From the IMG/VR virus record IMGVR_UViG_3300031949_001696: DNA of 64,000 nucleotides; one strand, written 5' to 3'. Within the stretch, counting starts at the first letter, position 1. The number at the start of each line of letters is the position of its first letter. Below, piece after piece: positions 11,917 to 46,799 of the stretch. Made by a program: the position numbers and the translations under genes. The DNA comes from a virus. Taxonomy: Duplodnaviria; Caudoviricetes. The notes beneath the pieces are model-generated. The model saw only the letters and a list, made by a program, of their open reading frames with translations. It was not told the origin of the DNA and made no database searches.

Positions 11917-12384
11917 GTGAGGGCCGGGTACGGGCGCGGATACTACGGCGAAGGTCAGCTCGCGCGCAGCGCCCCGCGTCGTCGGAGCTGGTTCACTGTT
12001 GTTGCCGTCCTCGGTGTCGGCGCCGCGGTGGTGTGGCTCTTGTGGCCGCGTGGATCGTCGCCCGAGCCTATGTACGGGGGCAAGGAGTCCGAAGCTCCTC
12101 CGCCTCCGCCTCCGCCGTCAGGAGCCCAGATCCAGATCAGTCCTCCGACGTCGTTGCTGCTCCAGATCAGCGCGCCCGCCGAGGCTTCTCCGCCCGGTGT
12201 GGCGGTGGGTGCCTTCCTCAAGCAGCTCGAGGACGACGCGCTCTTGCGTGGTTTTTCGTCTACCAAGGAGTACGAGGACTCGGTGATCGCGATCGCCAAG
12301 GAGCTTGGGGCCACGGGCACGAAGGTCATGCTCGCTCCGCATCTACAGCACCTCGCCCCGCGCTTGGGGTCTTCGGCGCCGTGA
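11917..12384 (+). CDS. Membrane-anchored Pro-rich protein
   Basis: Gly/Tyr-rich N-terminus, one hydrophobic helix, poly-Pro; AGGAG RBS. Confidence 0.55.
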   Translation: MRAGYGRGYYGEGQLARSAPRRRSWFTVVAVLGVGAAVVWLLWPRGSSPEPMYGGKESEAPPPPPPPSGAQIQISPPTSLLLQISAPAEASPPGVAVGAFLKQLEDDALLRGFSSTKEYEDSVIAIAKELGATGTKVMLAPHLQHLAPRLGSSAP

Positions 12385-14426
12385 GCGATCCCGCTTCGTC
12401 TGCCCGCCGCTTTGTCTGCCGCGCATGCGGCCACAGGCATGCCACCTGGGCAGCACGCTGTTCGAGCTGCCGCGCGCTGGAGGGACTCACCGTCGAGTTG
12501 ATCGAGGTGCCGGTCTTGCTTCCGGCTCTTCCGCCGCAGACGCAGAGTGTTCCGCAGGTGGTGGCGCCGGAGCCGTCACGTCCGCGTCTCATGATCGCGC
12601 GCGCGCCCGAGCCTGCTCTCGAAGATCCGGCCGAGGAGCTGGTGGACGTTGCCTCGCCGGCGTCGGTGCCACTCTCCGATGTCTCCGAGACGACGTTCGC
12701 GCGCGATTTGACGGGATTGACGCCGCTCGACTACGTGCTCGGGGGCGGCCTCGTCGTGGCCTCCGTCATCTTGCTTGCGTCTCCGCGAGGGATCGGCAAA
12801 TGCCTCGGCGGCGGAACTCCCGTGCTCATGTTTGACGGGCGCTCGCTGCCTGTTGAGCAAATTTTACCGGGTGATCGTTTGATGGGTCCCGATGGCAAGT
12901 CACGTACGGTTCTCGCGACGACCGCTGGTATCGGAGAACTTTTCCGAATTGATCCGATTAAGGGTGAGCCCTGGATTTGCAACGGTGCGCATGTACTCAC
13001 GCTGGTCAACGGCCATACCGACGAAGTGATTGACGTGCCGCTTAGTGAGTGGCTCGCGAAGACACCGCACTCCGATCTGCGGCGCTATGGAAAGTTGTTC
13101 AGCACAGGCATCAACACGTTCGGAGATTCGACCGCAAACGAGCAGCATCTTTTGCCGATCGACCCTTATTTCCTTGGAGTTTGGTTCGGTGATGGAACGA
13201 AATGGCGCATCGAACGGACAACGGGCGAACAGCTCGCGAAGATTCAAATTACCAAACCCGATCCTGAGATTCTTGCGTTGTGTGAGGAACAGGGACGTTT
13301 GTGGGGTCTTCGTGTGCATACATACGAGTCCGCAACCAAGCGCGCTTCATATCAGCTTGTCGCGAATGAAGCTCCAGAAGGTGAAGGACGTTGGGCACCA
13401 AATCCATTGCTGCGTGCCCTTCGCGATATCGTTGGACCGGAGGTCAAAGTCCCCGACGCGTATCTCCGAGCCCCGCGGGGCCCGCGCCTTCAGTTTCTAG
13501 CAGGCTGGTGCGATACGGATGGCGAACTTGCGGGCACAACCTTCGTTATTTCGCAAAAGCGTGAAGACTGGGCGCGTACCATCTGGTGGCTCGCGCGCTC
13601 TCTCGGTTTCTGCGCGACCATTAAAACGCGAACCTCTCATTACACACGACCTGACGGTTCGCGCTTTGAAGGAACATACTGGGTCGTATTTATCAGCGGC
13701 GATACAGATCAAATCCCCACGCGACTACCGCGCAAGAAAGCGCCGCCTCGACGACAGAAAAAAGTCGCGACGCGGACCGGATTTACTGTGCATTCCTTGG
13801 GCGAGGGCGCTTATTACGGTTTTTCGCTCGACAGTGATGGGCGCTTCCTGCTCGGGGACTTCACTGTCACACACAATTCATCGCTAGCGCTCCAGATGCT
13901 CAACGGACTCGGGCATCGCTGTCTGTACGTATCGGGAGAGGAGACACTTGAGCAGGTGGCCATGACGGCTCGCCGTATCGGCGCGGCCTCGAAGAAGGTC
14001 AACATGCTGCCCGAGAGGAATCTCTCCATGATCTTCGCCGAGGCGCGCGCGATCCGGGCACAGACGATCGTGATCGATTCGATCCAGAAGATGCGCTGTG
14101 ATGACGTGGGCGGTCGCGCCGGTTCGCCGGGACAGCTCAAGGAGTGCACGGCGCAACTGGTCGACTACGCCAAGAACAACAGGACGGCTCTCTGGCTCAT
14201 TGGACACACGACTTCCGATGGCGACATCGCGGGGCCCATGACGATCGAGCACGAGGTCGACGTGGTGCTCGAACTGACGCAAGGCGCAAAGTTTGACGGC
14301 AATGAGCGGATCCTCACGTGCTTGGGCAAGAACAGGTTCGGACCGAGTAACCTGGTGGGACACTTCGAGCTGACCGCCAAGGGTTTTGTCTCCGTCGACG
14401 CCGACGGGTGGAACGAGGAGCTGTGA
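12381..14426 (+). CDS. radA: RadA/Sms-like ATPase with intein; lacks C-terminal Lon-like domain
   Basis: N-terminal C4 zinc finger (CRAC..CSSC), LDYVLGGG, Walker A split by intein, YVSGEE, VIDSIQ, KNRFG. Confidence 0.85.
   Translation: MSDPASSARRFVCRACGHRHATWAARCSSCRALEGLTVELIEVPVLLPALPPQTQSVPQVVAPEPSRPRLMIARAPEPALEDPAEELVDVASPASVPLSDVSETTFARDLTGLTPLDYVLGGGLVVASVILLASPRGIGKCLGGGTPVLMFDGRSLPVEQILPGDRLMGPDGKSRTVLATTAGIGELFRIDPIKGEPWICNGAHVLTLVNGHTDEVIDVPLSEWLAKTPHSDLRRYGKLFSTGINTFGDSTANEQHLLPIDPYFLGVWFGDGTKWRIERTTGEQLAKIQITKPDPEILALCEEQGRLWGLRVHTYESATKRASYQLVANEAPEGEGRWAPNPLLRALRDIVGPEVKVPDAYLRAPRGPRLQFLAGWCDTDGELAGTTFVISQKREDWARTIWWLARSLGFCATIKTRTSHYTRPDGSRFEGTYWVVFISGDTDQIPTRLPRKKAPPRRQKKVATRTGFTVHSLGEGAYYGFSLDSDGRFLLGDFTVTHNSSLALQMLNGLGHRCLYVSGEETLEQVAMTARRIGAASKKVNMLPERNLSMIFAEARAIRAQTIVIDSIQKMRCDDVGGRAGSPGQLKECTAQLVDYAKNNRTALWLIGHTTSDGDIAGPMTIEHEVDVVLELTQGAKFDGNERILTCLGKNRFGPSNLVGHFELTAKGFVSVDADGWNEEL
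12801..13877 (+). mobile_element. Intein (359 aa) with LAGLIDADG-type homing endonuclease, inserted in the Walker A motif
   Basis: GK|CLGGGT...VTHN|S junctions; YFLGVWFGDG and FLAGWCDTDG blocks; visibly lower GC. Confidence 0.92.
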
Positions 14427-23160: not shown

Positions 23161-23485
23161 CTACGCAGCACGGTATCGCGCGCCGTGAACGATCGCGAAT
23201 CTTCGGCCGCCACCGCGCGGACATGCGCGTTCGTTGACTTCGTAGCAGCGCCGCGCTAGCATCCTTCTCGTACCAGTCATGTCGATCGCATCCATATCCA
23301 CGAGAGTCACAAGGCGCCAAGGCGTCATGGGACGCGTGTGTGCTCGCCGCGATTGGGCCAAAGCTGCGAATTTCGCCGGCCACGGGACCGTCGAGGGTAT
23401 CAAGCGCCAGCCGCAGCCCACGACCTACGAAGGAAAGGCTCCAGACGCATAGACCGAGCTAGAAGATAGCCGAAGCGATCTGGAG

Positions 23486-23523
23486 CCGCCCTGGGAACAA
23501 ACCCTCGGCGGTTTTTTCGTTTT
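23486..23523 (+). terminator. Intrinsic terminator-like hairpin immediately before the tRNA array
   Basis: CCGCC..GGCGG stem followed by TTTTTTCGTTTT. Confidence 0.5.
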
Positions 23524-23524
23524 C

Positions 23525-23608
23525 GGGTGCGCAGACCGGCGTGGTCCCGGGCCTGACTGTAGATCAGGCGTGCTCTGCACCGTCTTGGTTCGATTCCAGG
23601 CGCGCCCA
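23525..23608 (+). tRNA. tRNA-Tyr(GTA)
   Basis: cctga-CTGTAGA-tcagg; long variable arm; T loop. Confidence 0.8.
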
Positions 23609-23669
23609 CGAAAGGAAAGGAGACGTGATGCAGAAGAAGCTCAAACGTTCGACCGCGGAAACCCATCCT

Positions 23670-23741
23670 GGGCCCGTGGCGCAACGGTAGCGCACTCGGC
23701 TTTTACCCGAATTGTTGGGGGTTCGAATCCCTCCGGGCTCA
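23670..23741 (+). tRNA. tRNA-Lys(TTT)
   Basis: Cloverleaf, loop CTTTTAC. Confidence 0.85.
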
Positions 23742-23753
23742 CGAACAGATTGA

Positions 23754-23824
23754 TCAGGGTTCGTCCAACGGTAGGACCTGCGCCTCTGGAGCGCATGACG
23801 AGAGTTCGAATCTTTCACCCTGAA
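23754..23824 (+). tRNA. tRNA-Gln(CTG)
   Basis: tgcgc-CTCTGGA-gcgca. Confidence 0.85.
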
Positions 23825-23935
23825 CCGCGGCCGACTGCATCGCGCGTGAATCGACGGTCCCCCGAGCAACAGCGCTCACAGCGGGACGACAGCGACACGG
23901 CGAGGACGGGGCATGAAAACAGAAGCTAGAACTGA

Positions 23936-24436
23936 GTGTCGGACGGTCTTGATACGATCGTCACGATGGGTAAGCAGTGCACTCAATGTCACAAGGTCAA
24001 AGCCGTTGCCGAATTTCAATACAGAACTGCGACGACGGCACGGTGTCGTGAATGCAACAAGGCAGCATGCCGTGCCTGGCATGCCAAGAACAAAGGCGTT
24101 TACAAAGAGAAACGAAAGGAGCAGTGGAAGAGTCGAAATCGACCCGCCATCGAATTCGTACTCGCCGCGAAGAGTAAGCCTTGCACAGACTGCGGGCGAA
24201 CCTTCCATCCTGTGGCGATGGACTTCGATCATGTGAAAGGAAAGAAGACCACTGAAATCTCGACACTGATGAGAAGTGGCTACAGCTTGGAGCGGATCAA
24301 GAAGGAAGTCGCCAAGTGTGAAGTGGTGTGCGCATGTTGCCATCGTGTACGAACGCTCAAGAGAATGGGCACCAGTTCAAGACCGTATTCCATGTACGAC
24401 GTGTTCACGGACAACGGAAAGCTTCTTGGCAATTGA
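23936..24436 (+). CDS. HNH-type endonuclease inserted in the tRNA array
   Basis: CxxC pairs, MDFDH, CACCHRVRT; lower GC. Confidence 0.75.
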   Translation: MSDGLDTIVTMGKQCTQCHKVKAVAEFQYRTATTARCRECNKAACRAWHAKNKGVYKEKRKEQWKSRNRPAIEFVLAAKSKPCTDCGRTFHPVAMDFDHVKGKKTTEISTLMRSGYSLERIKKEVAKCEVVCACCHRVRTLKRMGTSSRPYSMYDVFTDNGKLLGN

Positions 24437-24485
24437 ATAGTTGAATGACGATGACGCGATCGCGGCATGTAGCACGATCGCAAAT

Positions 24486-24558
24486 GCCCAGACAGCTTGC
24501 TTGGTGCAAGCGCCGTCCCGAAAAGTCGGAGATGATCGTTCGAACCGATCTCTGGGCA
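24486..24558 (+). tRNA. tRNA-Phe(GAA)
   Basis: Loop CCGAAAA (C33); one stem mismatch. Confidence 0.7.
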
Positions 24559-24560
24559 CT

Positions 24561-24632
24561 GCCTCCGTAGCTCCAATGTAGAGCAAGCGGTTCTTACCCG
24601 TGAGGCTGTTGGTTCAAGTCCAACCGGGGGCA
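24561..24632 (+). tRNA. tRNA-Lys(CTT)
   Basis: Loop TTCTTAC. Confidence 0.8.
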
Positions 24633-24787
24633 CTAGTTCTCGTTGCTGTCCTTCCAAAAGCTCACAAGCGCGGTGGGGATCAGCAGTAACAGAAACAGCA
24701 CGATGTCACGTAGACGCCAGCCGTCGCCGAAGTCACTCATACTAGAAAGATCGTTCCGCGCTGGGTTTCGTGACAGGAAAAGTTCAA

Positions 24788-24861
24788 CGGGGTGTAGCTC
24801 AGCTTGGTAGAGCGCGTGCCTTGGGCGCATGAGGTCGCAGGTTCAATTCCTGTCGCCCCGA
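24788..24861 (+). tRNA. tRNA-Pro(TGG)
   Basis: cgtgc-CTTGGGC-gcatg. Confidence 0.9.
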
Positions 24862-24947
24862 CGAGAAACATGGGTGCCTGAGGACCCTGTCGGCGTTGCC
24901 GACGAACGTTGAAGCACGGCGCCGTGCTGAGACGACCAGGAAAACTT

Positions 24948-25018
24948 GCAGGTCAGGCCGACTGGCGAGGCACCGCGTTGCCAACGCGGATAGACGGATT
25001 CGATTTCCGTGATCTGCT
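24948..25018 (+). tRNA. tRNA-Gly(GCC)
   Basis: ccgcg-TTGCCAA-cgcgg. Confidence 0.8.
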
Positions 25019-25024
25019 CTGAAG

Positions 25025-25096
25025 GCCCGTACAGCACGATGGTCGTGCAGCAGTTTCGTAAACTGCCGGTTGCCGGTTCAAGTCCGGCTGCGGGCT
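25025..25096 (+). tRNA. tRNA-Thr(CGT)
   Basis: gcagt-TTCGTAA-actgc. Confidence 0.85.
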
Positions 25097-25100
25097 CGAC

Positions 25101-25173
25101 GCTATCGTAGCTCAGCTGGCAGAGCACCTGACTTGTAATCAGGGGGTCCCGAGTTCGATTCTCGGTGGTAGCT
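25101..25173 (+). tRNA. tRNA-Thr(TGT)
   Basis: cctga-CTTGTAA-tcagg. Confidence 0.9.
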
Positions 25174-25183
25174 CGATGATCAT

Positions 25184-25266
25184 TCCGAGGTAGCCTAGCG
25201 GCAAGGCACGCGGCTGTTAACCGCGCGTGGGAAACCACATCGTTGGTTCGAATCCAACCTTCGGAG
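25184..25266 (+). tRNA. tRNA-Asn(GTT) with long variable arm
   Basis: cgcgg-CTGTTAA-ccgcg plus gtgg-gaaa-ccac extra arm. Confidence 0.8.
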
Positions 25267-25350
25267 CGTACGGTTCTCGCGCAGTTCCTTCAGGCGATTG
25301 GCTCCGGGCGTTCCCAGCTCGGTGCAGGCTCCGCGGCGCGTGAACCTTCT

Positions 25351-25422
25351 GCGGGTGAGGCCGACTGGCGAGGCACCGGGTTTCCACCCCGGCTAGGTAG
25401 GATTCGATTTCCACCATCCGCT
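25351..25422 (+). tRNA. tRNA-Gly(TCC)
   Basis: ccggg-TTTCCAC-cccgg. Confidence 0.75.
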
Positions 25423-25435
25423 CGAATGCGCGCAT

Positions 25436-25507
25436 GTGCACGTAGCTCAGCAGCAGAGCGCCGTCTCGACAAGGCGGATGCCGCAGGTGCAATCCCTGCC
25501 GTGCACA
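25436..25507 (+). tRNA. tRNA-Val(GAC)
   Basis: ccgtc-TCGACAA-ggcgg (C33). Confidence 0.8.
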
Positions 25508-25516
25508 CGATGACAC

Positions 25517-25668
25517 GTCGTGTTCGTCTAGCGGCCAAGGACGCTGGTCCCTGTGTCCGTCGCCCCATCGCGCGGTGCGGTGAGTCGTCGGACACTAGGT
25601 TCGGTCAGTGATGTCGTAACGCCACTTCCCTCAAACCGGCAACACGGGTTCGAGTCCCGTACACGACG
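25517..25668 (+). tRNA. tRNA-Glu(CTC) interrupted by a 79-nt insertion in the anticodon loop
   Basis: Intact acceptor (gtcgtgt/acacgac), D and T arms; removing 25553-25631 restores ctggt-CCCTCAA-accgg. Confidence 0.8.
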
Positions 25669-25681
25669 CGAAGAAGTTTCT

Positions 25682-25754
25682 GCCCCTGTAGCTCAGCAGA
25701 TAGAGCGCCTGGCTACGGACCAGGATGCCGGAGGTGCAAATCCTTTCAGGGGCG
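25682..25754 (+). tRNA. tRNA-Arg(ACG)
   Basis: cctgg-CTACGGA-ccagg. Confidence 0.85.
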
Positions 25755-25835
25755 CTAGGCGAACGTGCACGTGGGCAGCTCACAACGATGTCTCACCATC
25801 GTTGCGATGACTGGTGCACCGACGCCTCAATTTCT

Positions 25836-25902
25836 AGGCCGTGATCTGGGATCAGCTTGGTTTCCAAAACCGATCAGCGAGGTTCAATCCCTCGACGGCC
25901 TG
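25836..25902 (+). tRNA. tRNA-Trp(CCA), reduced D arm
   Basis: ttggt-TTCCAAA-accga. Confidence 0.7.
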
Positions 25903-25905
25903 CTA

Positions 25906-25981
25906 CGTGGTCTTGGCCTCGCGGACGGCGAACGCGAGGAGGAAGCTAAAGCACAGCTGGGTGAAAGTCCCGGAGACCACG
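25906..25981 (+). ncRNA. tRNA-like structured RNA without an anticodon arm
   Basis: cgtggtct/agaccacg closing stem, cctcgcg/cgcgagg hairpin, T-arm-like ctggg-TGAAAGT-cccgg. Confidence 0.45.
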
Positions 25982-25985
25982 CCTT

Positions 25986-26057
25986 CGCGGCGACTAGTGG
26001 ATCTAGACGGCGGTTTCATAAGCCGCTCGGAGTGCGGTTCGAGTCCGCCCGTCGCGA
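25986..26057 (+). tRNA. tRNA-Met(CAT)
   Basis: gcggt-TTCATAA-gccgc. Confidence 0.75.
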
Positions 26058-26061
26058 CTCA

Positions 26062-26133
26062 CGGGGTGTAGCTCAGGAGTAGAGCGCATGGTTCGGGACC
26101 ATGAAGCCGCTGGTGCGATTCCAGTCACCCCGA
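26062..26133 (+). tRNA. tRNA-Pro(CGG)
   Basis: catgg-TTCGGGA-ccatg. Confidence 0.85.
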
Positions 26134-26138
26134 CTCAC

Positions 26139-26212
26139 GGAGAGTAGTTCACCGGGCGGTGATGCCGATTTTACATGTCGGCTGCGCATGGGTTCGAGTC
26201 CCTGGCTCTCCA
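26139..26212 (+). tRNA. tRNA-Val(TAC)
   Basis: ccgat-TTTACAT-gtcgg. Confidence 0.7.
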
Positions 26213-26218
26213 CGATTT

Positions 26219-26290
26219 CCGCTCGTAGCTCAACGGTTGAGCGCGTGCTTGATAAGCGCGAGGCTGGTGGTTCGAGTCCACCCGAGCGGA
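26219..26290 (+). tRNA. tRNA-Ile(GAT)
   Basis: cgtgc-TTGATAA-gcgcg. Confidence 0.85.
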
Positions 26291-26303
26291 CGATGAGAAC
26301 GAC

Positions 26304-26375
26304 GGGCCTCTAGTTCAACAGTAGAACGCTCGGCCTATTACCGAGATGTTGAGGGTGCAAATCCTTCGGGGCCTA
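26304..26375 (+). tRNA. tRNA-Ile(TAT)
   Basis: ctcgg-CCTATTA-ccgag; atypical C33 and U37. Confidence 0.65.
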
Positions 26376-26382
26376 CGATCAC

Positions 26383-26459
26383 GGTGCATGGAGCCAGCTG
26401 GAGACGGCGCTCGGATGTGGCCCGAGTTTCGGCGAGTTCGATCCTCGTCATGCACCCCA
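26383..26459 (+). tRNA. tRNA-His(GTG)
   Basis: G-1:C73, ctcgg-ATGTGGC-ccgag, encoded CCA. Confidence 0.85.
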
Positions 26460-26463
26460 GTTT

Positions 26464-26535
26464 CGAGCAGTGGCGAAGTGGCATCGCGCCGGTTCGGGGA
26501 ACCGGAAATCGCAGGTTCGATCCCTGCCTGCTCGA
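26464..26535 (+). tRNA. tRNA-Pro(GGG)
   Basis: ccggt-TCGGGGA-accgg (C33). Confidence 0.8.
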
Positions 26536-26612
26536 CGAAAGGAGGTTGCGGCCGATCTACTGTCAGATCGTTCGTGCAGGAGCGTCTAGTCTATAGAAGG
26601 AGAACGAACGCC

Positions 26613-27149
26613 ATGGAGCCGACACATCAGACTCTGGTCCTTTCGCAAGGCTACGAACCGGTCAAGATCGTTTCGTGGCAGCGCGCCATCACGCTGCTCT
26701 TCCTCGGTAAGGTCGAAGTGGTCGAGGAGTACGACCGCGGCATCAAGACGACGTCGCTCGTGATCAAGATCCCGTCGGTGGTGCGGCTCCTCAAGGCATT
26801 CCGTCGGTACCCAAAGCCGGTGAAGTTCTCACGGATCAACATCTACGGGCGCGACAAGTACACCTGCCAGTATTGCGGGACGAAGAAGTCGATCGGCGAG
26901 CTGACGTACGACCACGTTGTGCCGCGTTCGCGGGGTGGAAAGACAACGTGGACCAACATCGCCACGTGCTGCTCGGACTGCAATCGCCGAAAGGCGAATC
27001 GCACACCGGAGCAGGCCGGCATGCGGCTGCTCAAGGAGCCCGTGCTGCCGACCGCCACGCCGGTGCTGGTAGTGGCCGTGAGCCGTGAGTCGGCACCCGA
27101 CGCGTGGCGCGATTACCTGTACTGGACGAGCGAGTTGGACGAAGACTGA
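26613..27149 (+). CDS. HNH endonuclease (McrA-like)
   Basis: RDKYTCQYCG, TYDHVVPRSRGG, CCSDCNRRK; AGGAG RBS. Confidence 0.9.
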   Translation: MEPTHQTLVLSQGYEPVKIVSWQRAITLLFLGKVEVVEEYDRGIKTTSLVIKIPSVVRLLKAFRRYPKPVKFSRINIYGRDKYTCQYCGTKKSIGELTYDHVVPRSRGGKTTWTNIATCCSDCNRRKANRTPEQAGMRLLKEPVLPTATPVLVVAVSRESAPDAWRDYLYWTSELDED

Positions 27150-27180
27150 TGTGCGAGCGCGCGGCAACGCGCTCGCATTT

Positions 27181-27255
27181 GGGGACGTAGGGGAGCTGGC
27201 CGTCCCCGCTGGCCTGTCACGCCGGAAATCGCGAGTTCGAATCTCGTCGTTCCCG
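27181..27255 (+). tRNA. tRNA-Asp(GTC)
   Basis: ctggc-CTGTCAC-gccgg. Confidence 0.85.
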
Positions 27256-27266
27256 CTTCGCGCTTT

Positions 27267-27335
27267 GGGGTGAGTACCGGGGTACAGCTGACCCTCGCAC
27301 GGTCGGCCCGCCGAGTTCAACTCTCGGTCGCTCCA
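27267..27335 (+). tRNA. tRNA-Ala(CGC), reduced D arm
   Basis: G3:U70, loop CTCGCAC. Confidence 0.7.
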
Positions 27336-27339
27336 CGAC

Positions 27340-27411
27340 GGGTCCATGGCTCAATGGGAGAGCGCTCGCATGGCATGCGAGAGATTGCGCGTTCGATTCG
27401 CGCTGGATCCA
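27340..27411 (+). tRNA. tRNA-Ala(GGC)
   Basis: G3:U70, ctcgc-ATGGCAT-gcgag. Confidence 0.8.
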
Positions 27412-27446
27412 CGATCGCTGCTCAACCGCGCGGTGCCCACACGCAC

Positions 27447-27515
27447 CATTGATGCCTCAAGGTGAGGCGTCGGCCTTCGGAGCCGAAAGTCTGGTTCAAT
27501 TCCAGATCATCCCCA
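27447..27515 (+). pseudogene. tRNA-Arg(TCG)-like with disrupted 5' acceptor strand
   Basis: D, anticodon (tcggc-CTTCGGA-gccga) and T arms intact; only 3 acceptor pairs. Confidence 0.55.
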
Positions 27516-27556
27516 AAAGGGATCGTGCACCGCGCACTCGAGCAGCGAACACTTTC

Positions 27557-27790
27557 TCAGTGCCCCTGGCAAGGTCCTTCGCAGATCTTGCAGTAGTCCT
27601 CGTCGAACGTATCGTCGATGGAGTGGTCGCCAGGCGGGTAGATCATTTCCTCTTCGAGGACGTCTCCGCTCGCAGTGCAGCTCGGACAAAGGAGGTCGTC
27701 GCCAGACCGTAGCCAGTTGTCGGGGAGTTGATCGATATCAGCGATCTCCTGAACCTTGCCGCACCGCGTGCACACGACGAACGTGGCCAT
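27557..27790 (-). CDS. Small Cys-rich zinc-binding protein
   Basis: CTRC, CPSC, CKICEGPC. Confidence 0.5.
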   Translation of the reverse strand: MATFVVCTRCGKVQEIADIDQLPDNWLRSGDDLLCPSCTASGDVLEEEMIYPPGDHSIDDTFDEDYCKICEGPCQGH

Positions 27791-27866
27791 GCTTCCAGGC
27801 TACGTGAACGACGACGGCACGGACAGTTTTTGGCTCTCGGGTAGGCGTGTTGTTTTTGCACGCTGG

Positions 27867-28433
27867 CTAGCGCAGGGTGATTCGAGCGATCGCCACGGCG
27901 TTCTCGCGCTCGAATGTCTCGCGATTGATCGAAAGCACGAGATCGTTGTCTTCGTCGGCGAACGCGCGCGCTTTCGATGAGGTGTCAAGGTCGAAGCCTA
28001 GCTTCTCGAACACGCGACATGACGCGACGTTCGCAGGGATCACCGATGCGTAGATCTGCGTGAGCCCCAAGCGCGCGAAGCCCGCGGCGCAGATCATCAA
28101 CGCGAAGCGCGTGCCGAGACCCTTACCTTGCTCGTTGGGATCTGCGATCAGGAATGCGAACTCGCAGGCACCGTCGTGCGACGTGCGCAGGTCGCCGTCG
28201 CCGACGAGGCACCCATCGCGGAACAACAGGAAGGGATGTCCACGGTCGGCGATCATGTTGACGTAGTGCTCGAGCACGTCGGCTTCATCGAGCGGCTCGG
28301 TGTGACCGAGCAGCGCCGCGTTCTTTGGGTCGTTGTAGGCAGCGGCGAACGTGGGGGCGTGCTTGTGCACGTCGTTCACCGTTGCCTCAACTGCGCTGAG
28401 ATCATTCCACTCCACGCGTAGCAGCTCCGTCAT
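27867..28433 (-). CDS. GNAT (RimJ/RimL-type) N-acetyltransferase
   Basis: QGKGLG, NVAS..VFEKLGF. Confidence 0.8.
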   Translation of the reverse strand: MTELLRVEWNDLSAVEATVNDVHKHAPTFAAAYNDPKNAALLGHTEPLDEADVLEHYVNMIADRGHPFLLFRDGCLVGDGDLRTSHDGACEFAFLIADPNEQGKGLGTRFALMICAAGFARLGLTQIYASVIPANVASCRVFEKLGFDLDTSSKARAFADEDNDLVLSINRETFERENAVAIARITLR

Positions 28434-28455
28434 CTATCTCCTCCGTAATGAGCAA

Positions 28456-28519
28456 GTCTAAGCACAGCTCGGTGGACGCTGGGGCTACGCGGTGTGTCTA
28501 AGCACAGCTCGGTGGACGC
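28456..28519. repeat. 24-bp direct repeat x2 in a divergent intergenic region
   Basis: GTCTAAGCACAGCTCGGTGGACGC at 28456 and 28496. Confidence 0.85.
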
Positions 28520-28654
28520 GGTGGTTGTGCGGTGTGTTCAGGGTCAACCAAGAGGAGAGACGTTGCTTAGGCAACCCTACGAAACTGGATAAATTGCAAT
28601 GTATTGAACCGAAGTTGCAGCCTGGTCGTAGGTTGCGCGACACTCGCACATCCG

Positions 28655-29134
28655 ATGAGACTCAAGCCGCCACGCACGCACTACCTTGGCAAGGTGGCCG
28701 GACTTTCCATCTACCTCGTCTCGGGTGTGGACGTTCGTAACACCACCGACATTGACTTCACGTGCGGCGGCAATGAGGCCGTCTACCCGAGCTACGTCCC
28801 GCCCGGCGAGATCTGGCTCGATGATGCCGCTGGGCCGTTCGATCGCACGGCGACAGCGCTGCATGAGATTGTCGAGCGCCATCAGATGATGACGTTCGGA
28901 AAGAACTACGAAGATGCGCACGAAGTCGCATCGGCGACGGAGCGGCCGTTCCGTCGTGAGCTGGCCAAAGCCCCGCCGAAGGCATTTGATCCGCGGCGCG
29001 TCGCGACGGCCTACCAGGCGTACCTGAAGAAACCCGGACGCCATCCCGTCGTTGACCGGCCGAACGATCCGCGGCGGGGAGCCAAGCAGATGGACCGCGA
29101 GATCGGGGAAGCGCTCGGGCGACGAGCGCGCTGA
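28655..29134 (+). CDS. Putative metal-binding (HExxE) protein with C-terminal QMDREIGEAL tag; paralogue of 36940-37407
   Basis: GEIWLD, ALHEIVERH, YEDAH. Confidence 0.6.
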   Translation: MRLKPPRTHYLGKVAGLSIYLVSGVDVRNTTDIDFTCGGNEAVYPSYVPPGEIWLDDAAGPFDRTATALHEIVERHQMMTFGKNYEDAHEVASATERPFRRELAKAPPKAFDPRRVATAYQAYLKKPGRHPVVDRPNDPRRGAKQMDREIGEALGRRAR

Positions 29135-29393
29135 CAAGTCGAGAGCACGGTGGGTTCGCCGCTGTGTCTCTATGCTTTCGACCGGGACGCACACCCGCGA
29201 TGTCGCCGTCCGAGCGTGCGGTCATGGCGCCGACACGGATAGTTTGTGGCTCTCGGGCAGGCATGTACCAAGGAGGCGAGCTGGATTTGCAATCCGGTTG
29301 CGGTCGGTTCGATCCCGATCCTGTCCACGCCACGCTAGACTGTCGCGATGACGAACACGGAGGTCCACATGATGACGTAGCCGCGCTTCCTTC

Positions 29394-29618
29394 ATGGAAG
29401 CGCTCATCGAGATCCGTCTCATCACCATCAACAAGCAGCCCACCGAGGAGAATCACGTAGAAGAGTTCGTCGAGCTGCTCGAAGCAGGTCGGCAGCTGCC
29501 GGCAATCAAGCTTCGCAAGATCACCGACGACGAGTACCGCCTCGTCGATGGTCGACACCGCCTTGAGGCGCGGCGACGTCTCGGCAAAACGCGCGTTCGC
29601 GCGCACATCACGTTGTAG
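29394..29618 (+). CDS. Small ParB/Srx-like domain protein
   Basis: LPAI..YRLVDGRHRLEA. Confidence 0.65.
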   Translation: MEALIEIRLITINKQPTEENHVEEFVELLEAGRQLPAIKLRKITDDEYRLVDGRHRLEARRRLGKTRVRAHITL

Positions 29619-29684
29619 CTGCCCCAAAGGTGACCGCAGATTTCGGCATGCTCGCCTGGTACGCGAGAGACTCCGAGTTGGGGC

Positions 29685-30056
29685 TCAAGGTTGTTTGAAG
29701 TAGCGGCGCGCGAGGTTCGCCGCGGTGCCGCTGTGCTTTCGCCCGGGGCGCACCCACGCGATGTCTCCGTTCGAGCGCGCGGTCATGGTCTCGTCCCGCG
29801 CTTCGTCGGTCGAGAAGCCTCCGACCGTCGGGAACCCTCCGACGTTGTTTCGCGGCGACGTGAACATGTGGAACACCTGCACGCGCAGAGCGCGCTCGTC
29901 GCGCAGGTAGAGCTGGGCCAGCAGGTCGCAGCCTCGCGCGTCTCCCACCACGAACGCGGCTTCTTCCGCGATCGCTGTCGCGATCCGTGGAGCGTAGTGC
30001 GCGCGGAACTCGTCGACCGTGAGGTCGAGATGTCCGCTGATGAAGTAGGTCTTCAT
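29685..30056 (-). CDS. Hypothetical protein, possibly SLOG/YspA-like nucleotide-binding fold
   Basis: FISGH, VVGDARGCD, RD..M, SGT. Confidence 0.5.
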   Translation of the reverse strand: MKTYFISGHLDLTVDEFRAHYAPRIATAIAEEAAFVVGDARGCDLLAQLYLRDERALRVQVFHMFTSPRNNVGGFPTVGGFSTDEARDETMTARSNGDIAWVRPGRKHSGTAANLARRYFKQP

Positions 30057-30073
30057 GTGGGTCGTTTACCTGA

Positions 30074-30144
30074 TCGGGGATCGTCTAACGGTAGGACGTG
30101 CGCCTTTGGAGCGCACTATCAAGGTTCGAATCCTTGTCCCCGAA
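30074..30144 (+). tRNA. tRNA-Gln(TTG)
   Basis: tgcgc-CTTTGGA-gcgca. Confidence 0.9.
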
Positions 30145-30273
30145 CTACACTGCACGCGTCTCCTCGCGCGCGGGGCCTGCGGAACGGCAGGCGGGCTGTG
30201 CAAGAGCCCGCGCGTAGATCACCGTGGTCAGCTCACTCCTACGGCTTCCAACGGGGCGAGCACTTTTCTTCTT

Positions 30274-30346
30274 GCGTCGGTAGCCAAGTGGCCAAGGCAC
30301 GCGCCTGCAAAGCGCGCAGTGACGGGTTCGATTCCCTCCCGACGCT
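30274..30346 (+). tRNA. tRNA-Cys(GCA)
   Basis: cgcgc-CTGCAAA-gcgcg, U73. Confidence 0.85.
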
Positions 30347-30366
30347 CGAAACTCTTCACGCTCCAC

Positions 30367-30439
30367 GCTCTCGTAGCTCAATGGATAGAGCAGACGGCTT
30401 CTACCCGTAAGATTGAAGGTCCGAGTCCTTCCGAGAGCA
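30367..30439 (+). tRNA. tRNA-Arg(TCT)
   Basis: Loop CTTCTAC. Confidence 0.8.
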
Positions 30440-30445
30440 CGTCCC

Positions 30446-30519
30446 GCCTTCGAAGCCGCATTGGAAGCGGCACCGAGTTCCTACCTCGGAGGTTGCAGGT
30501 TCGAGTCCTGTCGAAGGCA
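30446..30519 (+). tRNA. tRNA-Arg(CCT)
   Basis: ccgag-TTCCTAC-ctcgg. Confidence 0.85.
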
Positions 30520-30527
30520 CGCCTCCT

Positions 30528-30629
30528 GCGGGCATGCGGCAATGGCGCCGCGCCGGTCAAGCTTTCGTCGTCCGAGCGATCGGGCTGTCGCGAGACCGTT
30601 ATCAGGTTCGATCCCAGATGCCCGCTCCA
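30528..30629 (+). ncRNA. tRNA-Gly-like RNA with the anticodon loop replaced by a ~35-nt structured segment
   Basis: gcgggca/tgcccgc-T-CCA acceptor, D and T arms, cggtc/gaccg stem. Confidence 0.6.
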
Positions 30630-30667
30630 TCATCTAGTCCATCTAGTGGTACCTCTCGCCGACGGAA

Positions 30668-30868
30668 ATGCTGACCATCAAGCTCTTCGGAGACAAGCAA
30701 GCTGAGAGGTTTGTCTGGTCGATCGCGGTCATGGACAGTCGCGGCATGCACCTCGTTACGGACGGTACCGCCGACTCGGCAGAAAACGCCAAGGCGGGGA
30801 TGCGCACTGCTCTCGGAAAGCTCGTCGAGAAGTTGGAATTCCGGCCCGTCGCACCCACCGACGACTGA
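30668..30868 (+). CDS. Small hypothetical protein
   Basis: ORF between tRNA genes. Confidence 0.4.
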   Translation: MLTIKLFGDKQAERFVWSIAVMDSRGMHLVTDGTADSAENAKAGMRTALGKLVEKLEFRPVAPTDD

Positions 30869-30977: not shown

Positions 30978-31024
30978 GTCGGCGTTTCACAACGGAGATG
31001 CGGGTTTGACTCCCGTCGCCGATA
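30978..31024 (+). pseudogene. Internally deleted tRNA remnant (Val-CAC-like loop, no D arm)
   Basis: gtcggcg/cgccgat acceptor and T arm only. Confidence 0.5.
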
Positions 31025-31091: not shown

Positions 31092-32750
31092 ATGTCGATC
31101 GACTATCTGATGGACGCCGTTGCGTCGCCGACGCAGCGAGAGAAGGCCGACCCTCGGCAGGTCATGAACAATGCAGGAGGCTACACGTTCGTCGTCGACG
31201 ACTGGGCACGCCTGCGCCGCTTCCTGGTGCTCGGCGCCGAGGGCGGCACGTACTATGCGTCCGAGAAGAAGCTCGCGCGCGAGAACGCCGCGTGCGTCGA
31301 GCGGCTGATCCAGCTCGATGGTCCACGCCTCGTTCGCGAGGTGGCCGAGCTGTCGGAGAGCGGTCGCGCGCCCAAGAACGATCCGGCGATCCTCGCGCTC
31401 GCGCTCGCCGCCAAGCTCGGCGACCTGCCGACCAAGCGGGCCGCGTACGCGGCGCTGCCGCGCGTCTGCCGCATCGGCACGCACCTCTACCACTTCGCCG
31501 CGTTCACGAGCGCAATCGCGGGTGGCGGCTGGGGCGCCGGCATGCGCCGCGCAATCGGCGACTGGTTCAACGCCCGATCGGTCGACGACACCGCGCACCA
31601 GGTCGTGAAGTACCAGTCGCGCGACGGCTGGTCGGCCAAGGACGTCCTTTGCCTCGCGCGTCCGAACCCGAAGAAGGCGTACCGCTTCGACAAGGAAGCA
31701 GGGCGTGTCGTCGCGGCCGACGACTTCGCCGCGCGCGACGCGCTCTACCGCTGGGTGACGTACGGCGTCGAGGGCCTCGACGTCGATCAGCGCGCGAAGC
31801 TGCCGGCGATCGTCGATGCGTTCGAGCAGCTCAAGGGCCTGACCGACGGCAAGAAGGTCGTCGCGCTGATCCGCGAGCACTCGCTGCCGCGCGAGGCCGT
31901 GCCGACGCAGCACCTGACGCTTCCCGAGGTATGGGAGGCGCTCCTGCCGCACATGGGCCTGTCCGCTCTCGTCCGTAACCTCGCGACGATGACGCGCGTC
32001 GGCGTGATCGCGCCGCTCGGCGCGCACGTGCCGGCGATCTGCGCGCGCCTCACGGATGCTGCGCAGCTCTCCAAGGCGCGCGTGCATCCGATCCAGATGC
32101 TGTCGGCGCTCAAGACGTATCAGCAGGGGCACGGCGCGCGCGGCAAGTCGACGTGGACTGCGGTCCAGCCGATCGTCGACGCGCTCGACGCAGGTTTCTA
32201 CGCGGCGTTCGCGACGGTCGAGCCGACGAACCAGGCGACGCTGATCGCGCTCGATGTCTCGGCGTCGATGTGCTCGGGCACGATCGCGGGCTGCCCTGGC
32301 CTGTCGCCGCGCGTGGCGTCGGCGGCGATGGCGCTCGTGACGGCGGCGCGCGAGCCGAACCACCACATCATGGGGTTCTCGGACACGCTCGTCGACGTGC
32401 CGATCTCGCCGAAGATGCGTCTCGATCAGGCGATCGCTGCGATCGATCGCGTTCGGATGGGCGGCACGGACTGTGCGCTGCCGATGGTCTGGGCCGAGAA
32501 GTCGAAGGCGAAGGTCGACGCGATCGCGATCTACACCGACAACGAGACGTGGGCCGGCCCGGGGCATCCGCACAAGGCGCTCCAGAGCTACCGCAAGAGC
32601 TCGGGGCGGCCGACCAAGCTCGCGGTTGTCGGCTTGACCGCGACGCAGTTCACGATCGCCGATCCGACGGACGCAGGCATGATGGACTTCGTCGGGTTCG
32701 ACGCGGCGGCGCCGCAACTCATGGCGGACTTCTTTCGCGAGGGAGCATGA
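31092..32750 (+). CDS. rsr: Ro60/TROVE-domain RNA-binding protein (Rsr) with vWA domain
   Basis: NNAGGY, RFLVLG.EGGTYY, KYQSRDGWS, ALVRNL, MIDAS DVSASM, GGTDC, TDNET, GFD; AGGAG RBS. Confidence 0.95.
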   Translation: MSIDYLMDAVASPTQREKADPRQVMNNAGGYTFVVDDWARLRRFLVLGAEGGTYYASEKKLARENAACVERLIQLDGPRLVREVAELSESGRAPKNDPAILALALAAKLGDLPTKRAAYAALPRVCRIGTHLYHFAAFTSAIAGGGWGAGMRRAIGDWFNARSVDDTAHQVVKYQSRDGWSAKDVLCLARPNPKKAYRFDKEAGRVVAADDFAARDALYRWVTYGVEGLDVDQRAKLPAIVDAFEQLKGLTDGKKVVALIREHSLPREAVPTQHLTLPEVWEALLPHMGLSALVRNLATMTRVGVIAPLGAHVPAICARLTDAAQLSKARVHPIQMLSALKTYQQGHGARGKSTWTAVQPIVDALDAGFYAAFATVEPTNQATLIALDVSASMCSGTIAGCPGLSPRVASAAMALVTAAREPNHHIMGFSDTLVDVPISPKMRLDQAIAAIDRVRMGGTDCALPMVWAEKSKAKVDAIAIYTDNETWAGPGHPHKALQSYRKSSGRPTKLAVVGLTATQFTIADPTDAGMMDFVGFDAAAPQLMADFFREGA

Positions 32751-32753
32751 CCC

Positions 32754-33617
32754 GTGGGGTATTTGCACATTGCCAACCTCTACAAGGAGCCTGATCTCCT
32801 TTTGTTCCGACGCTGCTACGCGCTCGAGAAGGTGCACGGCACTTCCGCTCATATCGCCTGGGGCCCCGCTGGAGTCACGTTCTTCTCCGGTGGTGAGTCT
32901 CACACGCGCTTCGTCGGGCTGTTCGACGCTGCCGCGCTGAAAGATCAGTTCAGCGCGCTGGGACACGCCGAGGTGACGATCTACGGTGAGGCGTACGGCG
33001 GCAGTCAGCAGGGCATGAGGCTCGTCTACGGCGCGGAGCTGCGCTTCATCGCGTTCGACGTGCAGGTGGGCTCGTGCTGGCTGTCTGTGAAGGATGCCGA
33101 GCAGGTATGCCAGGCGCTCGACATCGAGTTCGTGCCTTACGAAGAGATCGCGACCGAGCTGGTCGAGATCGATCGCGTGCGCGATCAGCCGTCAGCGGTG
33201 GCCGTGCGTCGCGGCACGGGAGCCGACAAGCCGCGCGAGGGAGTGGTCCTGCGCCCGCTCGTCGAGGTGACCAAGAACAACGGATCGCGCATCATTGCCA
33301 AGCACAAGGCCGACACGTTCGCCGAGCGTGCCACGCCACCCAAGGTGGTGGATGTGGCCAAGCTCGAAGTGCTGGCGGCGGCAGAGGCGATCGCGCAGGA
33401 GTGGGTGACGCCGATGCGCCTGACTCACGTGCTCGATAAGCTCGGCACGACCGACATCAGCGAGATGTCCAAGATCATTCACGCCATGGTCGAGGACGTG
33501 TTCCGCGAGGCCAAGGGCGAGATCGTCGAATCGAAGGATGCCCGGACAGCGATCGGCAAACGCACGGCGCGGCTATTCAAGGAGCGTCTTGACCAGGTGA
33601 TGCGCACCGCGGGCTGA
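32754..33617 (+). CDS. ATP-dependent RNA ligase, Rnl2-like
   Basis: Nucleotidyltransferase motifs EKVHG, YGE, FIAFDV, EGVV, AKHK. Confidence 0.8.
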   Translation: MGYLHIANLYKEPDLLLFRRCYALEKVHGTSAHIAWGPAGVTFFSGGESHTRFVGLFDAAALKDQFSALGHAEVTIYGEAYGGSQQGMRLVYGAELRFIAFDVQVGSCWLSVKDAEQVCQALDIEFVPYEEIATELVEIDRVRDQPSAVAVRRGTGADKPREGVVLRPLVEVTKNNGSRIIAKHKADTFAERATPPKVVDVAKLEVLAAAEAIAQEWVTPMRLTHVLDKLGTTDISEMSKIIHAMVEDVFREAKGEIVESKDARTAIGKRTARLFKERLDQVMRTAG

Positions 33618-41514: not shown

Positions 41515-41945
41515 TGAGACTTGTGCCCGATCTGGAGGCGCGTTTCATTCGGCACGAGGTCCGCGTCGAGATGCGGCGGTTCGTCAAGCCCGAGGCATTC
41601 GCAGAGAGGCCGAGCGGTCCTTACACTGAAAGCGACTTCGAGGAGCGGACAGGACCTGTCGTGTACATTCCCGTCGTCGAGACGCTCGCGGAGGCTGACG
41701 GTGTGTGGTTGCTGTGCCCGAAGTGCTACGCGGAGAACGGAGGCTGCGTCGGCACGCACGCGGTGATCTGCTGGTTCGTCGGCAAGGTCGATGACGACGT
41801 CGACCCCAAGCCCGGACGGTGGACGCCGGCCGGGACGGGCCTTTCCGACCTGACGTTCGTGCCGAGCGCGGGCCGCAGCCATTCCGTGTTGCTCACGGGC
41901 GGGTGCATGGCGCACTTCTTCGTGAATAATGGAGATGCTCTATGA
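41514..41945 (+). CDS. Cys/His-rich hypothetical protein
   Basis: LCPKC..H, LTFVPS, C.AHFFV. Confidence 0.5.
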   Translation: MRLVPDLEARFIRHEVRVEMRRFVKPEAFAERPSGPYTESDFEERTGPVVYIPVVETLAEADGVWLLCPKCYAENGGCVGTHAVICWFVGKVDDDVDPKPGRWTPAGTGLSDLTFVPSAGRSHSVLLTGGCMAHFFVNNGDAL

Positions 41946-42619
41946 GGTGTGGTCTCTATAAGATCCTTGGGCCAGGCGGAAGATTCTATGTAGGCCAATC
42001 AATCGACATTTCAGCGCGTTGGCATTATCACCGCACGCAGCTTCGGTGTGGAACGCACGGGAATGCAAAACTACAAAACGCCTGGAACAAGTATGGCGAG
42101 AGCGCCTTCATCTTTGGGGTGATCGCTTTTTATCCTGTCGAGGACCTCGATCGTCACGAGCAGATCTGGCTTGACACCACTGATGCCGTCTCGCATGGAT
42201 ACAACATCGTGGCATTCGCCTCATCGAACCGAGGCTTTGCAAATCCAAAGGTGTCTGAGCGAAATCGACGAACACGAGGCAAGGATCATCCATCGTTCGG
42301 AAAGCCACGGCCTGATCTTGCAGCACGTAACCGCACGGAGCCTAATCCCATGAAGGGTAAGAAGCTGCCTGAGACAAGCGCTGTAAGAGTACGTGCACGT
42401 CTACGAGGACCACTGCATTTCAACTATGGCAAGAAGCGCGTGCATCCGCAGCATCTGTTTGGTCCGCAGAAACTGCGCGCACATATTGATGTCATTCAGC
42501 AGCGGCTACGCGCGGGTGAAACCGTCGCGGCGTTGGCGATCGAATTCGGGGTAAACTGGAAGACCGTCGACAAGATCAAGCGCTGGCACGGCCACGTGGT
42601 CAACGGGGTCGCGAGTTGA
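41942..42619 (+). CDS. GIY-YIG homing endonuclease with NUMOD-like repeats and C-terminal HTH
   Basis: GLY..FYVGQS, RW..H, LQNAWNKYG, GYN; lower GC. Confidence 0.8.
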   Translation: MRCGLYKILGPGGRFYVGQSIDISARWHYHRTQLRCGTHGNAKLQNAWNKYGESAFIFGVIAFYPVEDLDRHEQIWLDTTDAVSHGYNIVAFASSNRGFANPKVSERNRRTRGKDHPSFGKPRPDLAARNRTEPNPMKGKKLPETSAVRVRARLRGPLHFNYGKKRVHPQHLFGPQKLRAHIDVIQQRLRAGETVAALAIEFGVNWKTVDKIKRWHGHVVNGVAS

Positions 42620-43634: not shown

Positions 43635-43704
43635 GCGCGCCCGCGAGGCGCGCGATAGTGAGGTCCAAGCTCGTCACGTTTTTACTGTACCAGTTTCGAT
43701 TGAG

Positions 43705-43780
43705 AGAGCCCGGCGGGAGTCGAACCCGCGACCAACGATTTCATCACTTCGCTGCTCTAACCAACCTGAGCTACGGGCCC
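43705..43780 (-). tRNA. tRNA-Ile-like gene with aberrant ~10-nt anticodon loop
   Basis: gggcccg-tagctcaggttggttagagc, canonical T arm; loop AGTGATGAAA. Confidence 0.6.
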
Positions 43781-45194: not shown

Positions 45195-45882
45195 ATGATC
45201 ATGAACGCTTCATCCGATTCCGTTGTCGTCGAGGTCCGTGCTGCGGAAGGCGGCAACGATGCCAAGCTCCTCGTACTCGAGCAAGTGAAGATCTACGTGC
45301 GGCTCTGCGGCCGGAGGTCTCTTTGACGTCGAACTCGTAGAGGATCGCCCCGGCATCGCCGTGCTCTGCGTCTCGGGCCGCGGCGCCACGGCGCTGTTCG
45401 CGGGCGAAGCGGGCGGGCACCGATGGCAACGCGTGCCCGAGACTGAGAAGCGCGGTCGTGTACATACGAGCACGATCACCGTCGCCGTGCTCGAAGAGCC
45501 GCGTCACGTCGACCAGACGATCCGGCCCGAGGACGTCGACGTCGAGACGATGCGCGGATCAGGTGCCGGCGGCCAGCACCGAAACAAGACCGACTCGGCC
45601 GTGCGCGCGCGCCACCGGCCGACCGGCATCGAGGTCCGCTGCGAGGCGGAACGATCGCAGCATCGGAATCGTGAGCTGGCGATGCTCGTGCTCTCCGCGC
45701 GTGTCGCGGAGCTGACGCGATCGGCCGTGCAGGGAGCGCGCGACGCTGATCGACGACAGCAGTTAGGATCGGGGATGCGCGGCTGCAAGATAAGAACGAT
45801 TCGTGTGCAGCACGACGTAGTGGTAGACCATCAGACAGGTCGACAGTGGGCGCTGAAACAATACCTTCGCGGCGACTGGTGA
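45195..45882 (+). CDS. Class I peptide chain release factor homologue (RF1-type PxT, GGQ; no domain 1), about 228 aa via +1 frameshift at 45321-45327
   Basis: Frame 0 EVRAAEGG; GGAGG-TCT-CTT-TGA-C; +1 frame EAGGHRWQRVPETEKRGRVHTS and GAGGQHRNKT. Confidence 0.85.
45313..45327 (+). promoter_or_regulatory. prfB-type programmed +1 ribosomal frameshift site
   Basis: Internal SD GGAGG, 3-nt spacer, CTT TGA C. Confidence 0.88.
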
Positions 45883-46799
45883 TGGACGACGATGAGATGG
45901 CGAGTGCTTACCTTTCCGGCGCGTCTCTACCGCAGATCGCAGCTGTCAACGGACGTCCTTACGACTTCGCACGTCGTCACGTATTGCGAGCCGGCGCTAC
46001 GCCGCGGAGTTCCGCGGAAGGTGTCCATCTCGCCAAGCGCGTACAGCAGGACGTTGAGGTGACAGAAGAGCTGACCGAACTGATCGACGGCCTTCTTCTT
46101 GGTGACGGCCATCTAGAAGCTACGCAGTGGAGCGCGCGTCTGACACTTGGACAAACAGCAGCCCATCTTCCATGGCTACAGCAAGTACACGGCATTCTTA
46201 CGCGGAGTGGCGTTGCGTCGACAATACAAGTTCACGGGCGCGCAGGTCAGATGAGCGTGCACGGAAAGCGATTTCGCCGTCGACGATCACGCGCGTTGCG
46301 TACAGCGCGCTATGTGTTTCTGAAAGCAGTGCATGCGCGTTGGTATCCGAATGGCGTAAAGCGGGTACCGCAAGATGTTCGCCTAACGCCGCTTTCGATC
46401 GCGCATTGGTATTTTGGCGACGGTACTGTTGGGTGTCGTGGTTACCACGCAAAATTCTGCACTGATGGGTTCTCGGCGGCTGATGTGCGCAGGCTCATGC
46501 AGGCGCTCACGGAGCGGTTTGCATGGGCGCCTGTTCTTGAGCAACGAAACCGAATCTTACTTTGCAAGACGTGCGATCGAGCTTCTCTCGTCAAAATGCT
46601 ACGAAGCTCACAGGTCCCGCGCTGCTTCCGTCACAAGCTTCGGCTGCGACTTCAAGATCGTAGATTCGTCGTTATAGGAACCAAGGAAGAGCGCCTGCGC
46701 GACTTGCGCCTGCGCGAGCTGAGCTACGGCAGGATCGCGATGGAATTGAAATTGTCGAAGAGTGGCGTCTTCAGCGCCTGTCAGCGTTTAGGCGTTTAG
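45882..46799 (+). CDS. Free-standing LAGLIDADG homing endonuclease
   Basis: LIDGLLLGDG and IAHWYFGDG; HTH-like termini. Confidence 0.85.
   Translation: MDDDEMASAYLSGASLPQIAAVNGRPYDFARRHVLRAGATPRSSAEGVHLAKRVQQDVEVTEELTELIDGLLLGDGHLEATQWSARLTLGQTAAHLPWLQQVHGILTRSGVASTIQVHGRAGQMSVHGKRFRRRRSRALRTARYVFLKAVHARWYPNGVKRVPQDVRLTPLSIAHWYFGDGTVGCRGYHAKFCTDGFSAADVRRLMQALTERFAWAPVLEQRNRILLCKTCDRASLVKMLRSSQVPRCFRHKLRLRLQDRRFVVIGTKEERLRDLRLRELSYGRIAMELKLSKSGVFSACQRLGV

Follow-up and report, generated by a model that had tools for sequence, protein, structure and literature searches.

Positions 25517-25668 of the window analysed here, a 64-kb stretch of a 267,828-bp soil-metagenome contig, hold a complete tRNA-Glu(CUC) gene with 79 extra bases in its anticodon loop. 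These bases lack the features of known introns, and we conclude with high confidence that they are a genuine and recent DNA insertion accompanied by a 5-nt duplication. The explanation that we favour, to which we give roughly even credence, is that this recent insertion disabled decoding by tRNA-Glu(CUC).

The source genome of the window looks like that of a huge phage. The window has a GC content of ~62% and contains an array of >30 tRNA genes together with homing-endonuclease genes, an intein, Ro60, and an RNA ligase; no close relative was found among the cultured phages compared with it. Loci of relatives were collected through Ro60 and through an HNH endonuclease gene (26613-27149) that lies within the tRNA array, between tRNA-Pro(GGG) and tRNA-Asp. 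Eight distinct syntenic relatives were obtained, i.e. L052, L053, L132 (the same as L133), L135, L136 (the same as L137), L138, L173, and L174, and the same tRNA array and gene order are present in all of them (8/8). L050 and the window come from one and the same contig, and L050 hence does not provide an independent assembly. The HNH gene occupies the same place in all relatives collected and has >5,500 homologues at E<=1e-10, indicating that members of this phage clade abound in soil metagenomes. In the more remote huge phages G001-G005, matches were confined to the T arm and the tRNA-Glu genes are too diverged to be informative, and a search of IMG/VR with the exon pattern of the split tRNA-Glu gave no match.

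The 5' part of the gene (25517-25552, plus strand), delimited by alignment to the eight uninterrupted orthologues, comprises the 5' strand of the acceptor stem, the D arm, the 5' strand of the anticodon stem, and loop positions 32-35. The 3' part (25632-25668, plus strand) supplies loop positions 36-38, the 3' strand of the anticodon stem, a 4-nt variable loop, the T arm, the 3' strand of the acceptor stem, and the discriminator G. When joined, the halves form an acceptor stem of 7/7 bp, a D stem of 4 bp, an anticodon stem of 5 bp (CTGGT/ACCGG), and a T stem of 5 bp with a TTCGAGT loop. As the initial annotation had stated, both halves are undegraded: all of the stem pairs (21/21) are preserved, and the sequences of both the D loop and the T loop are compatible with a normal tRNA. 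The split gene was not called by ARAGORN at default settings or by the Rfam tRNA model. With introns allowed, ARAGORN reported a gene at 25517-25669 with an 81-nt intron, labelled as Arg(CCT) through a shifted stem; this identity was ruled out by the eight aligned orthologues, which are all Glu(CUC). Membership in tRNA-Glu is also seen in the Glu-type body, in the 4-nt variable loop and D arm, which match those of the orthologues, and in the slot between Val(GAC) and Arg(ACG). On tRNA arrays, ARAGORN with forced introns generates chimeras of adjacent tRNAs and is unusable for counting split genes; a dedicated scan for T arms whose acceptor partner lies far away identified no further anticodon-loop insert in the close relatives.

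In all eight relatives, an ordinary, uninterrupted tRNA-Glu(CUC) gene of 73-78 nt is present between Val(GAC) and Arg(ACG). The anticodon arm of the L174 gene, CTGGT-CCCTCAA-ACCGG, equals the two halves of the window's gene joined together and is an exact empty site; in the pairwise alignment of the window with L174, a clean 79-nt gap is bordered by identical flanks. Differences between the two genes preserve structure and include one compensated T-stem pair. The sequence TCCCT, which covers tRNA positions 31-35, is found once in L174 and twice in the window, at 25548-25552 (copy 1) and 25627-25631 (copy 2; both on the plus strand), and the event thus consisted of 74 new bases (25553-25626, plus strand) and a 5-nt duplication. 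The direct repeat initially reported to bound the insert therefore exists, but it is 5 nt long (TCCCT) rather than 4 nt (CCCT). By chance, a 5-mer repeat would flank an insert in about 1 in 1000 cases. The position of the insert is ambiguous over six registers, from tRNA positions 30/31 to 35/36, and the canonical 37/38 site is thus ruled out.

A chimeric join within the metagenome contig is a highly improbable source of this structure. Only one assembly spans the site, and no clean spanning piece was present in the contigs compared. When the contigs of four DNA runs were matched at 80% likeness, mostly unrelated tRNAs were recruited and no joint skipping the 79 nt was obtained; in the same comparison, one relative's contig carried 497 different letters in place of window positions 25424-25903. 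However, all of the 31-mers sampled from 24400-26600 (242/242) are present in one soil sequencing run, which is probably the source of the contig, so that the junctions are supported by reads at the 31-mer level; no RNA run was listed among those containing this stretch. Moreover, a 5-nt repeat cannot mislead an assembler at k=141, and both flanks are collinear with the relatives on either side of the clean gap.

The insert is predicted to fold into two hairpins. Hairpin 1 (25553-25595) is closed by a 7-bp stem (GTGTCCG/CGGACAC) and can be extended by pairing of the exon bases CCU (25550-25552) with AGG (25596-25598), and hairpin 2 (AGTG/CACT) spans 25603-25629, its 3' end lying within repeat copy 2. 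Both are part of the minimum-energy fold, in agreement with the earlier description of a structured 79-nt insert, but the significance of this fold is weak (z-score of -1.9; 7 of 200 shuffled sequences fold equally well). When the cloverleaf was enforced, the insert kept the same two hairpins at -60.7 kcal/mol, compared with -62.5 kcal/mol for the free fold (1.8 kcal/mol apart), and the anticodon bases CUCAA were left unpaired beside the stem. According to this model, the insert need not block end-processing of the tRNA.

The 74 inserted bases are an orphan sequence for which nothing similar was found. No copy of them was detected in the window or in 1.75 Mb of related loci (BLAST and nhmmer), and no copy of the insert was detected in cultured phages or plasmids. 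For two 18-base pieces of the insert, IMG/VR contained no exact match. A third 18-mer gave 33 matches in 185,579 species genomes, none of which extends past 18-25 nt, as expected of chance. The search for the insert outside its own site, which the initial annotation had suggested, thus yielded no second copy in any of these collections. Rfam searches over 23400-30800 at E<=5 found no family matching the insert, no promoter or terminator was found within it, and its ends (GTGTCCG... and ...GCCACT) do not form terminal inverted repeats. The site shares its pair of filled and empty alleles and its 5-nt direct target duplication with the footprints of IS elements and MITEs and with filler DNA at repaired staggered breaks, whereas it differs from IS elements and MITEs in that terminal inverted repeats, another copy, and an identifiable source of the 74 bases are all absent. 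Even so, a small insertion with target duplication is the best fit of the three origins first proposed, given the empty site in L174 and the duplication.

Group I introns have a conserved P1-P9 core and a length of ~200 nt or more (roughly 200 nt for the smallest ones in anticodon loops); the exon upstream of them ends in U, and the intron itself ends in G. Those of tRNA-Leu(UAA) and Azoarcus tRNA-Ile lie, like the insert, in the anticodon loop, and the insert is located within their position range. However, at 79 nt the insert is too small, it has no Rfam match at E<=5, and its boundary nucleotides differ: U precedes the 5' junction only in the register 25552/25553, in which the last base of the insert is U25631 instead of G. 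Group II introns begin with GUGYG, end with AY, and contain a domain V hairpin; in the register 25552/25553, the insert starts with GUGUC and ends with CU, and it has no Rfam group II match and is far too short. The view that the insert is too short for group I or group II self-splicing is thus borne out. Archaeal and eukaryal tRNA introns, which are likewise short, lie in the anticodon region, and would need an endonuclease and a ligase, are marked by a 3-4-3 bulge-helix-bulge (BHB) at their junctions and by the canonical position 37/38. In an enumeration that permitted G-U pairs, neither arrangement of this motif was present around either junction, in line with the earlier remark that no clear BHB is visible; with position 37/38 excluded as well, a BHB intron was rejected. 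No splicing-endonuclease (EndA-like) Pfam domain was identified in the 40 window ORFs scanned. A remnant of a trans-spliced intron, another of the origins first proposed, is not supported, the two halves being collinear and merely 79 nt apart.

The window also contains a damaged tRNA-Glu(UUC) gene. This gene is intact directly upstream of Ro60 in 8/8 relatives, and comparison with these orthologues showed that the window retains only a truncated remnant (30978-31024, plus strand), in which the 5' strand of the acceptor stem is fused to the loop TTTCAC and approximately positions 8-32 (the D arm and the 5' strand of the anticodon stem) are deleted. C56 is near-universal in the tRNA T-loop consensus. 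The T loop of the remnant, TTTGACT, departs from C56, which is kept in 6/6 relatives read among the eight with an intact gene. Apart from the split CUC gene and the UUC remnant, no Glu gene occurs in the 64-kb window. The split gene, introduced as the only tRNA-Glu of the window, is thus the only complete one, and a second intact tRNA-Glu, which had been named together with the lack of a spliced product as evidence against the initial reading, was not found within these 64 kb. That the damage to both Glu genes of one genome reflects independent accidents is unlikely. The simplest reading is that phage-encoded Glu tRNAs became dispensable in this lineage, a view with which the truncation of the second gene is consistent; escape from an agent targeting Glu tRNA genes would be a more speculative reading.

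Among the Glu codons of 20 window ORFs, 74% are GAG, and tRNA-Glu(CUC) would thus be the more useful Glu tRNA to keep. C33 was considered as a sign of decay and rejected, since it is widespread in the clade and the empty-site allele also has it. It is found in Val(GAC) in 7/7 of the arrays compared, in Pro(GGG) in 6/7, and sporadically in Phe, Ile, Glu, and other tRNAs (window positions 24486-26536 and relatives), i.e. in 3-8 tRNAs per array. The intact Glu gene of L174 also carries C33, which therefore predates the insertion.

Ro60 (31092-32750; TROVE plus vWA domains by Pfam) is followed directly by a gene for an Rnl2-like RNA ligase (32754-33617, plus strand; Pfam RNA_ligase, E=2.9e-12), which lies 7 kb from the split tRNA-Glu(CUC). 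The ligase is 92% identical in L052, in which tRNA-Glu(CUC) is uninterrupted, and is thus not tied to the insert; a role in RNA repair or in Ro60/Y-RNA biology appears more natural. In more distant phages, Ro60 is adjoined by RNAs of 100-144 nt whose acceptor, D, and T arms are open and in which a long CCGA...GTTATC module replaces the anticodon arm (L016 9618-9736; L043 7354-7768; L059 769-892; L071 2954-3223; L081 8896-9737; and L121 9491-9619). These RNAs look like tRNA-like Y RNAs, but with the connectivity of a tRNA instead of a permuted one. At the site of the insert, no Rfam match to YrlA was obtained, and the insert does not contain the CCGA...GTTATC module.

Several other elements of the array and the window were recorded. 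A 514-nt segment between tRNA-Gln and tRNA-Phe (23913-24426) is absent from L136, L052, and L053. It carries an ORF (23936-24436) whose product combines Cys pairs with a DFDH...CACCH motif, as is typical of HNH nucleases; its Pfam score is below threshold, and it probably encodes a free-standing homing endonuclease. An 80-nt spacer (25268-25347) separates tRNA-Asn from tRNA-Gly(UCC), which are 3-4 nt apart in L052 and L053; this spacer is unrelated to the Glu insert. Between tRNA-Arg(CCU) and tRNA-Arg(CCG), a tRNA-like element of 102 nt that encodes its CCA end (30528-30629), followed by a 66-codon ORF (30668-30868), has been inserted, and no counterpart is present in the relatives. Conversely, tRNA-like genes of 127-129 nt that follow tRNA-Phe in L132 (815-941) and L135 (771-898 and 941-1068) are absent from the window; their acceptor, D, anticodon, and T arms are normal, and a conserved hairpin of ~60 nt flanked by AAGC repeats lies in the variable region. 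A tRNA on the minus strand (43704-43780) has an 8-nt anticodon loop, in which ARAGORN reads the four-base anticodon GATG. Further signs of mobile elements are a KaiC/DnaB-like ATPase gene interrupted by a Hint plus homing-endonuclease intein (12033-14426), a weak GIY-YIG/NUMOD3 ORF (41942-42619), and a release-factor fragment (RF-1 domain) that overlaps a LAGLIDADG endonuclease ORF (45361-46799). The window-specific insertions suggest that the array is an active site of DNA-level rearrangement.

Optional, 'enigmatic' tRNA introns with an unexplained mechanism have been described in the Lak megaphages (Devoto et al. 2019, PMC6784885); we found no mechanism in the literature on short phage tRNA introns. 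Like the insert, the Lak introns are short, fall outside the known self-splicing classes, occur in very large phages, and are absent from the same gene in relatives, and because optional tRNA-gene inserts are on record in huge phages (PMC6784885), lineage-specific presence alone is no proof of disruption. It is possible, and we put it forward tentatively, that the insert is likewise an optional mini-intron spliced by proteins: nucleases of the host or the phage would cut at its two edges, and the exons would be joined by the Rnl2-like ligase of the phage or by a host enzyme. The product would be a working tRNA-Glu(CUC) with the loop CCCUCAA, and the joined molecule would read CTGGTCCCTCAAACCGG. 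The undecayed exons with their structure-preserving differences, the fact that precise removal would recreate exactly the tRNA of L174, and the predominance of GAG among the Glu codons all favour splicing and count against disruption; disruption is further weakened by C33 being no defect in this clade and by the cloverleaf-plus-insert fold lying so close to the energy minimum. Splicing is also favoured by the status of the gene as the sole complete Glu gene in a private set of >30 tRNAs, by the predicted folding of the insert as an independent domain, and by the RNA ligase encoded nearby. However, across cohorts the Lak introns show conservation and in many cases identity, and one of them resembles a tRNA (PMC6784885), whereas the insert is confined to one genome, lacks relatives and conservation, and is not tRNA-shaped, and its flanking 5-nt target duplication points to an accident at the DNA level, not to an RNA-level element. 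In addition to the absence of a BHB and the exclusion of position 37/38, the 5' junction lies within a continuous predicted helix and a symmetric cleavage motif is absent. Splicing through the Rnl2-type ligase, as first suggested, is thus unsupported, the ligase being conserved in the insert-free L052 and a splicing-endonuclease domain being absent from the ORFs scanned.

A related and rather unlikely scenario is that the newly acquired insert is nonetheless removed, by a generic, structure-guided excision of extra anticodon-loop domains and resealing by the phage or the host. To our knowledge, no protein-dependent tRNA splicing route of this kind is known in bacteria. It is also improbable, and more so, that the transcript acts unspliced as a tRNA-like non-coding RNA, either as a decoy that draws off host nucleases directed at tRNA-Glu or as a client or partner of Ro60. 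The acceptor, D, and T arms are intact, so processing and recognition as a tRNA-like molecule would be possible, CUCAA is unpaired beside a stem in the constrained fold, Ro60 and the ligase are encoded nearby, and other Ro60-encoding phage loci contain tRNA-like RNAs with a long module in place of the anticodon arm. Against this, the insert has neither the CCGA...GTTATC motifs nor a YrlA match, it occupies an ordinary tRNA-gene slot that does not adjoin Ro60, and it is an orphan of one genome with no sign of selection.

Disruption of the gene by a recent insertion is favoured because the gene is uninterrupted in 8/8 relatives and L174 provides a clean empty site; a function of the insert is not argued for, since it is an orphan without conservation and the significance of its fold is weak. 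The lack of an Rfam match and of a BHB, the absence of a promoter or terminator from the insert, the truncation of the second Glu gene, the other window-specific insertions in the array, and the presence of the ligase in the insert-free L052 count in the same direction. The evidence for this reading covers 64 kb, whereas the genome spans at least 268 kb. According to it, 74 foreign bases would have entered at TCCCT (positions 31-35) and duplicated these 5 bases, through the filling-in of a staggered break around a captured fragment, a transposition-like event, or a microhomology-guided template switch. The cloverleaf would still form in the modelled transcript, with the insert as a separate two-hairpin domain, and the transcript ends would probably be trimmed as in the neighbouring tRNAs. 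The anticodon loop would become a three-way junction, and decoding would most likely be lost. The phage would then probably have no Glu decoding of its own and rely on the host tRNA-Glu.

If the insert merely disrupts the gene, the consequences would be small: both phage Glu tRNAs have probably been lost, and small DNA insertions and deletions bring about turnover in the large tRNA sets private to giant soil phages. If the insert is spliced, the gene would be a natural test case for short introns in the tRNA genes of large phages, in which the insert is young and exactly delimited, an uninterrupted relative is available for comparison, and the genome also encodes an RNA ligase, and it would bear on protein-based tRNA splicing in bacteria or their viruses.
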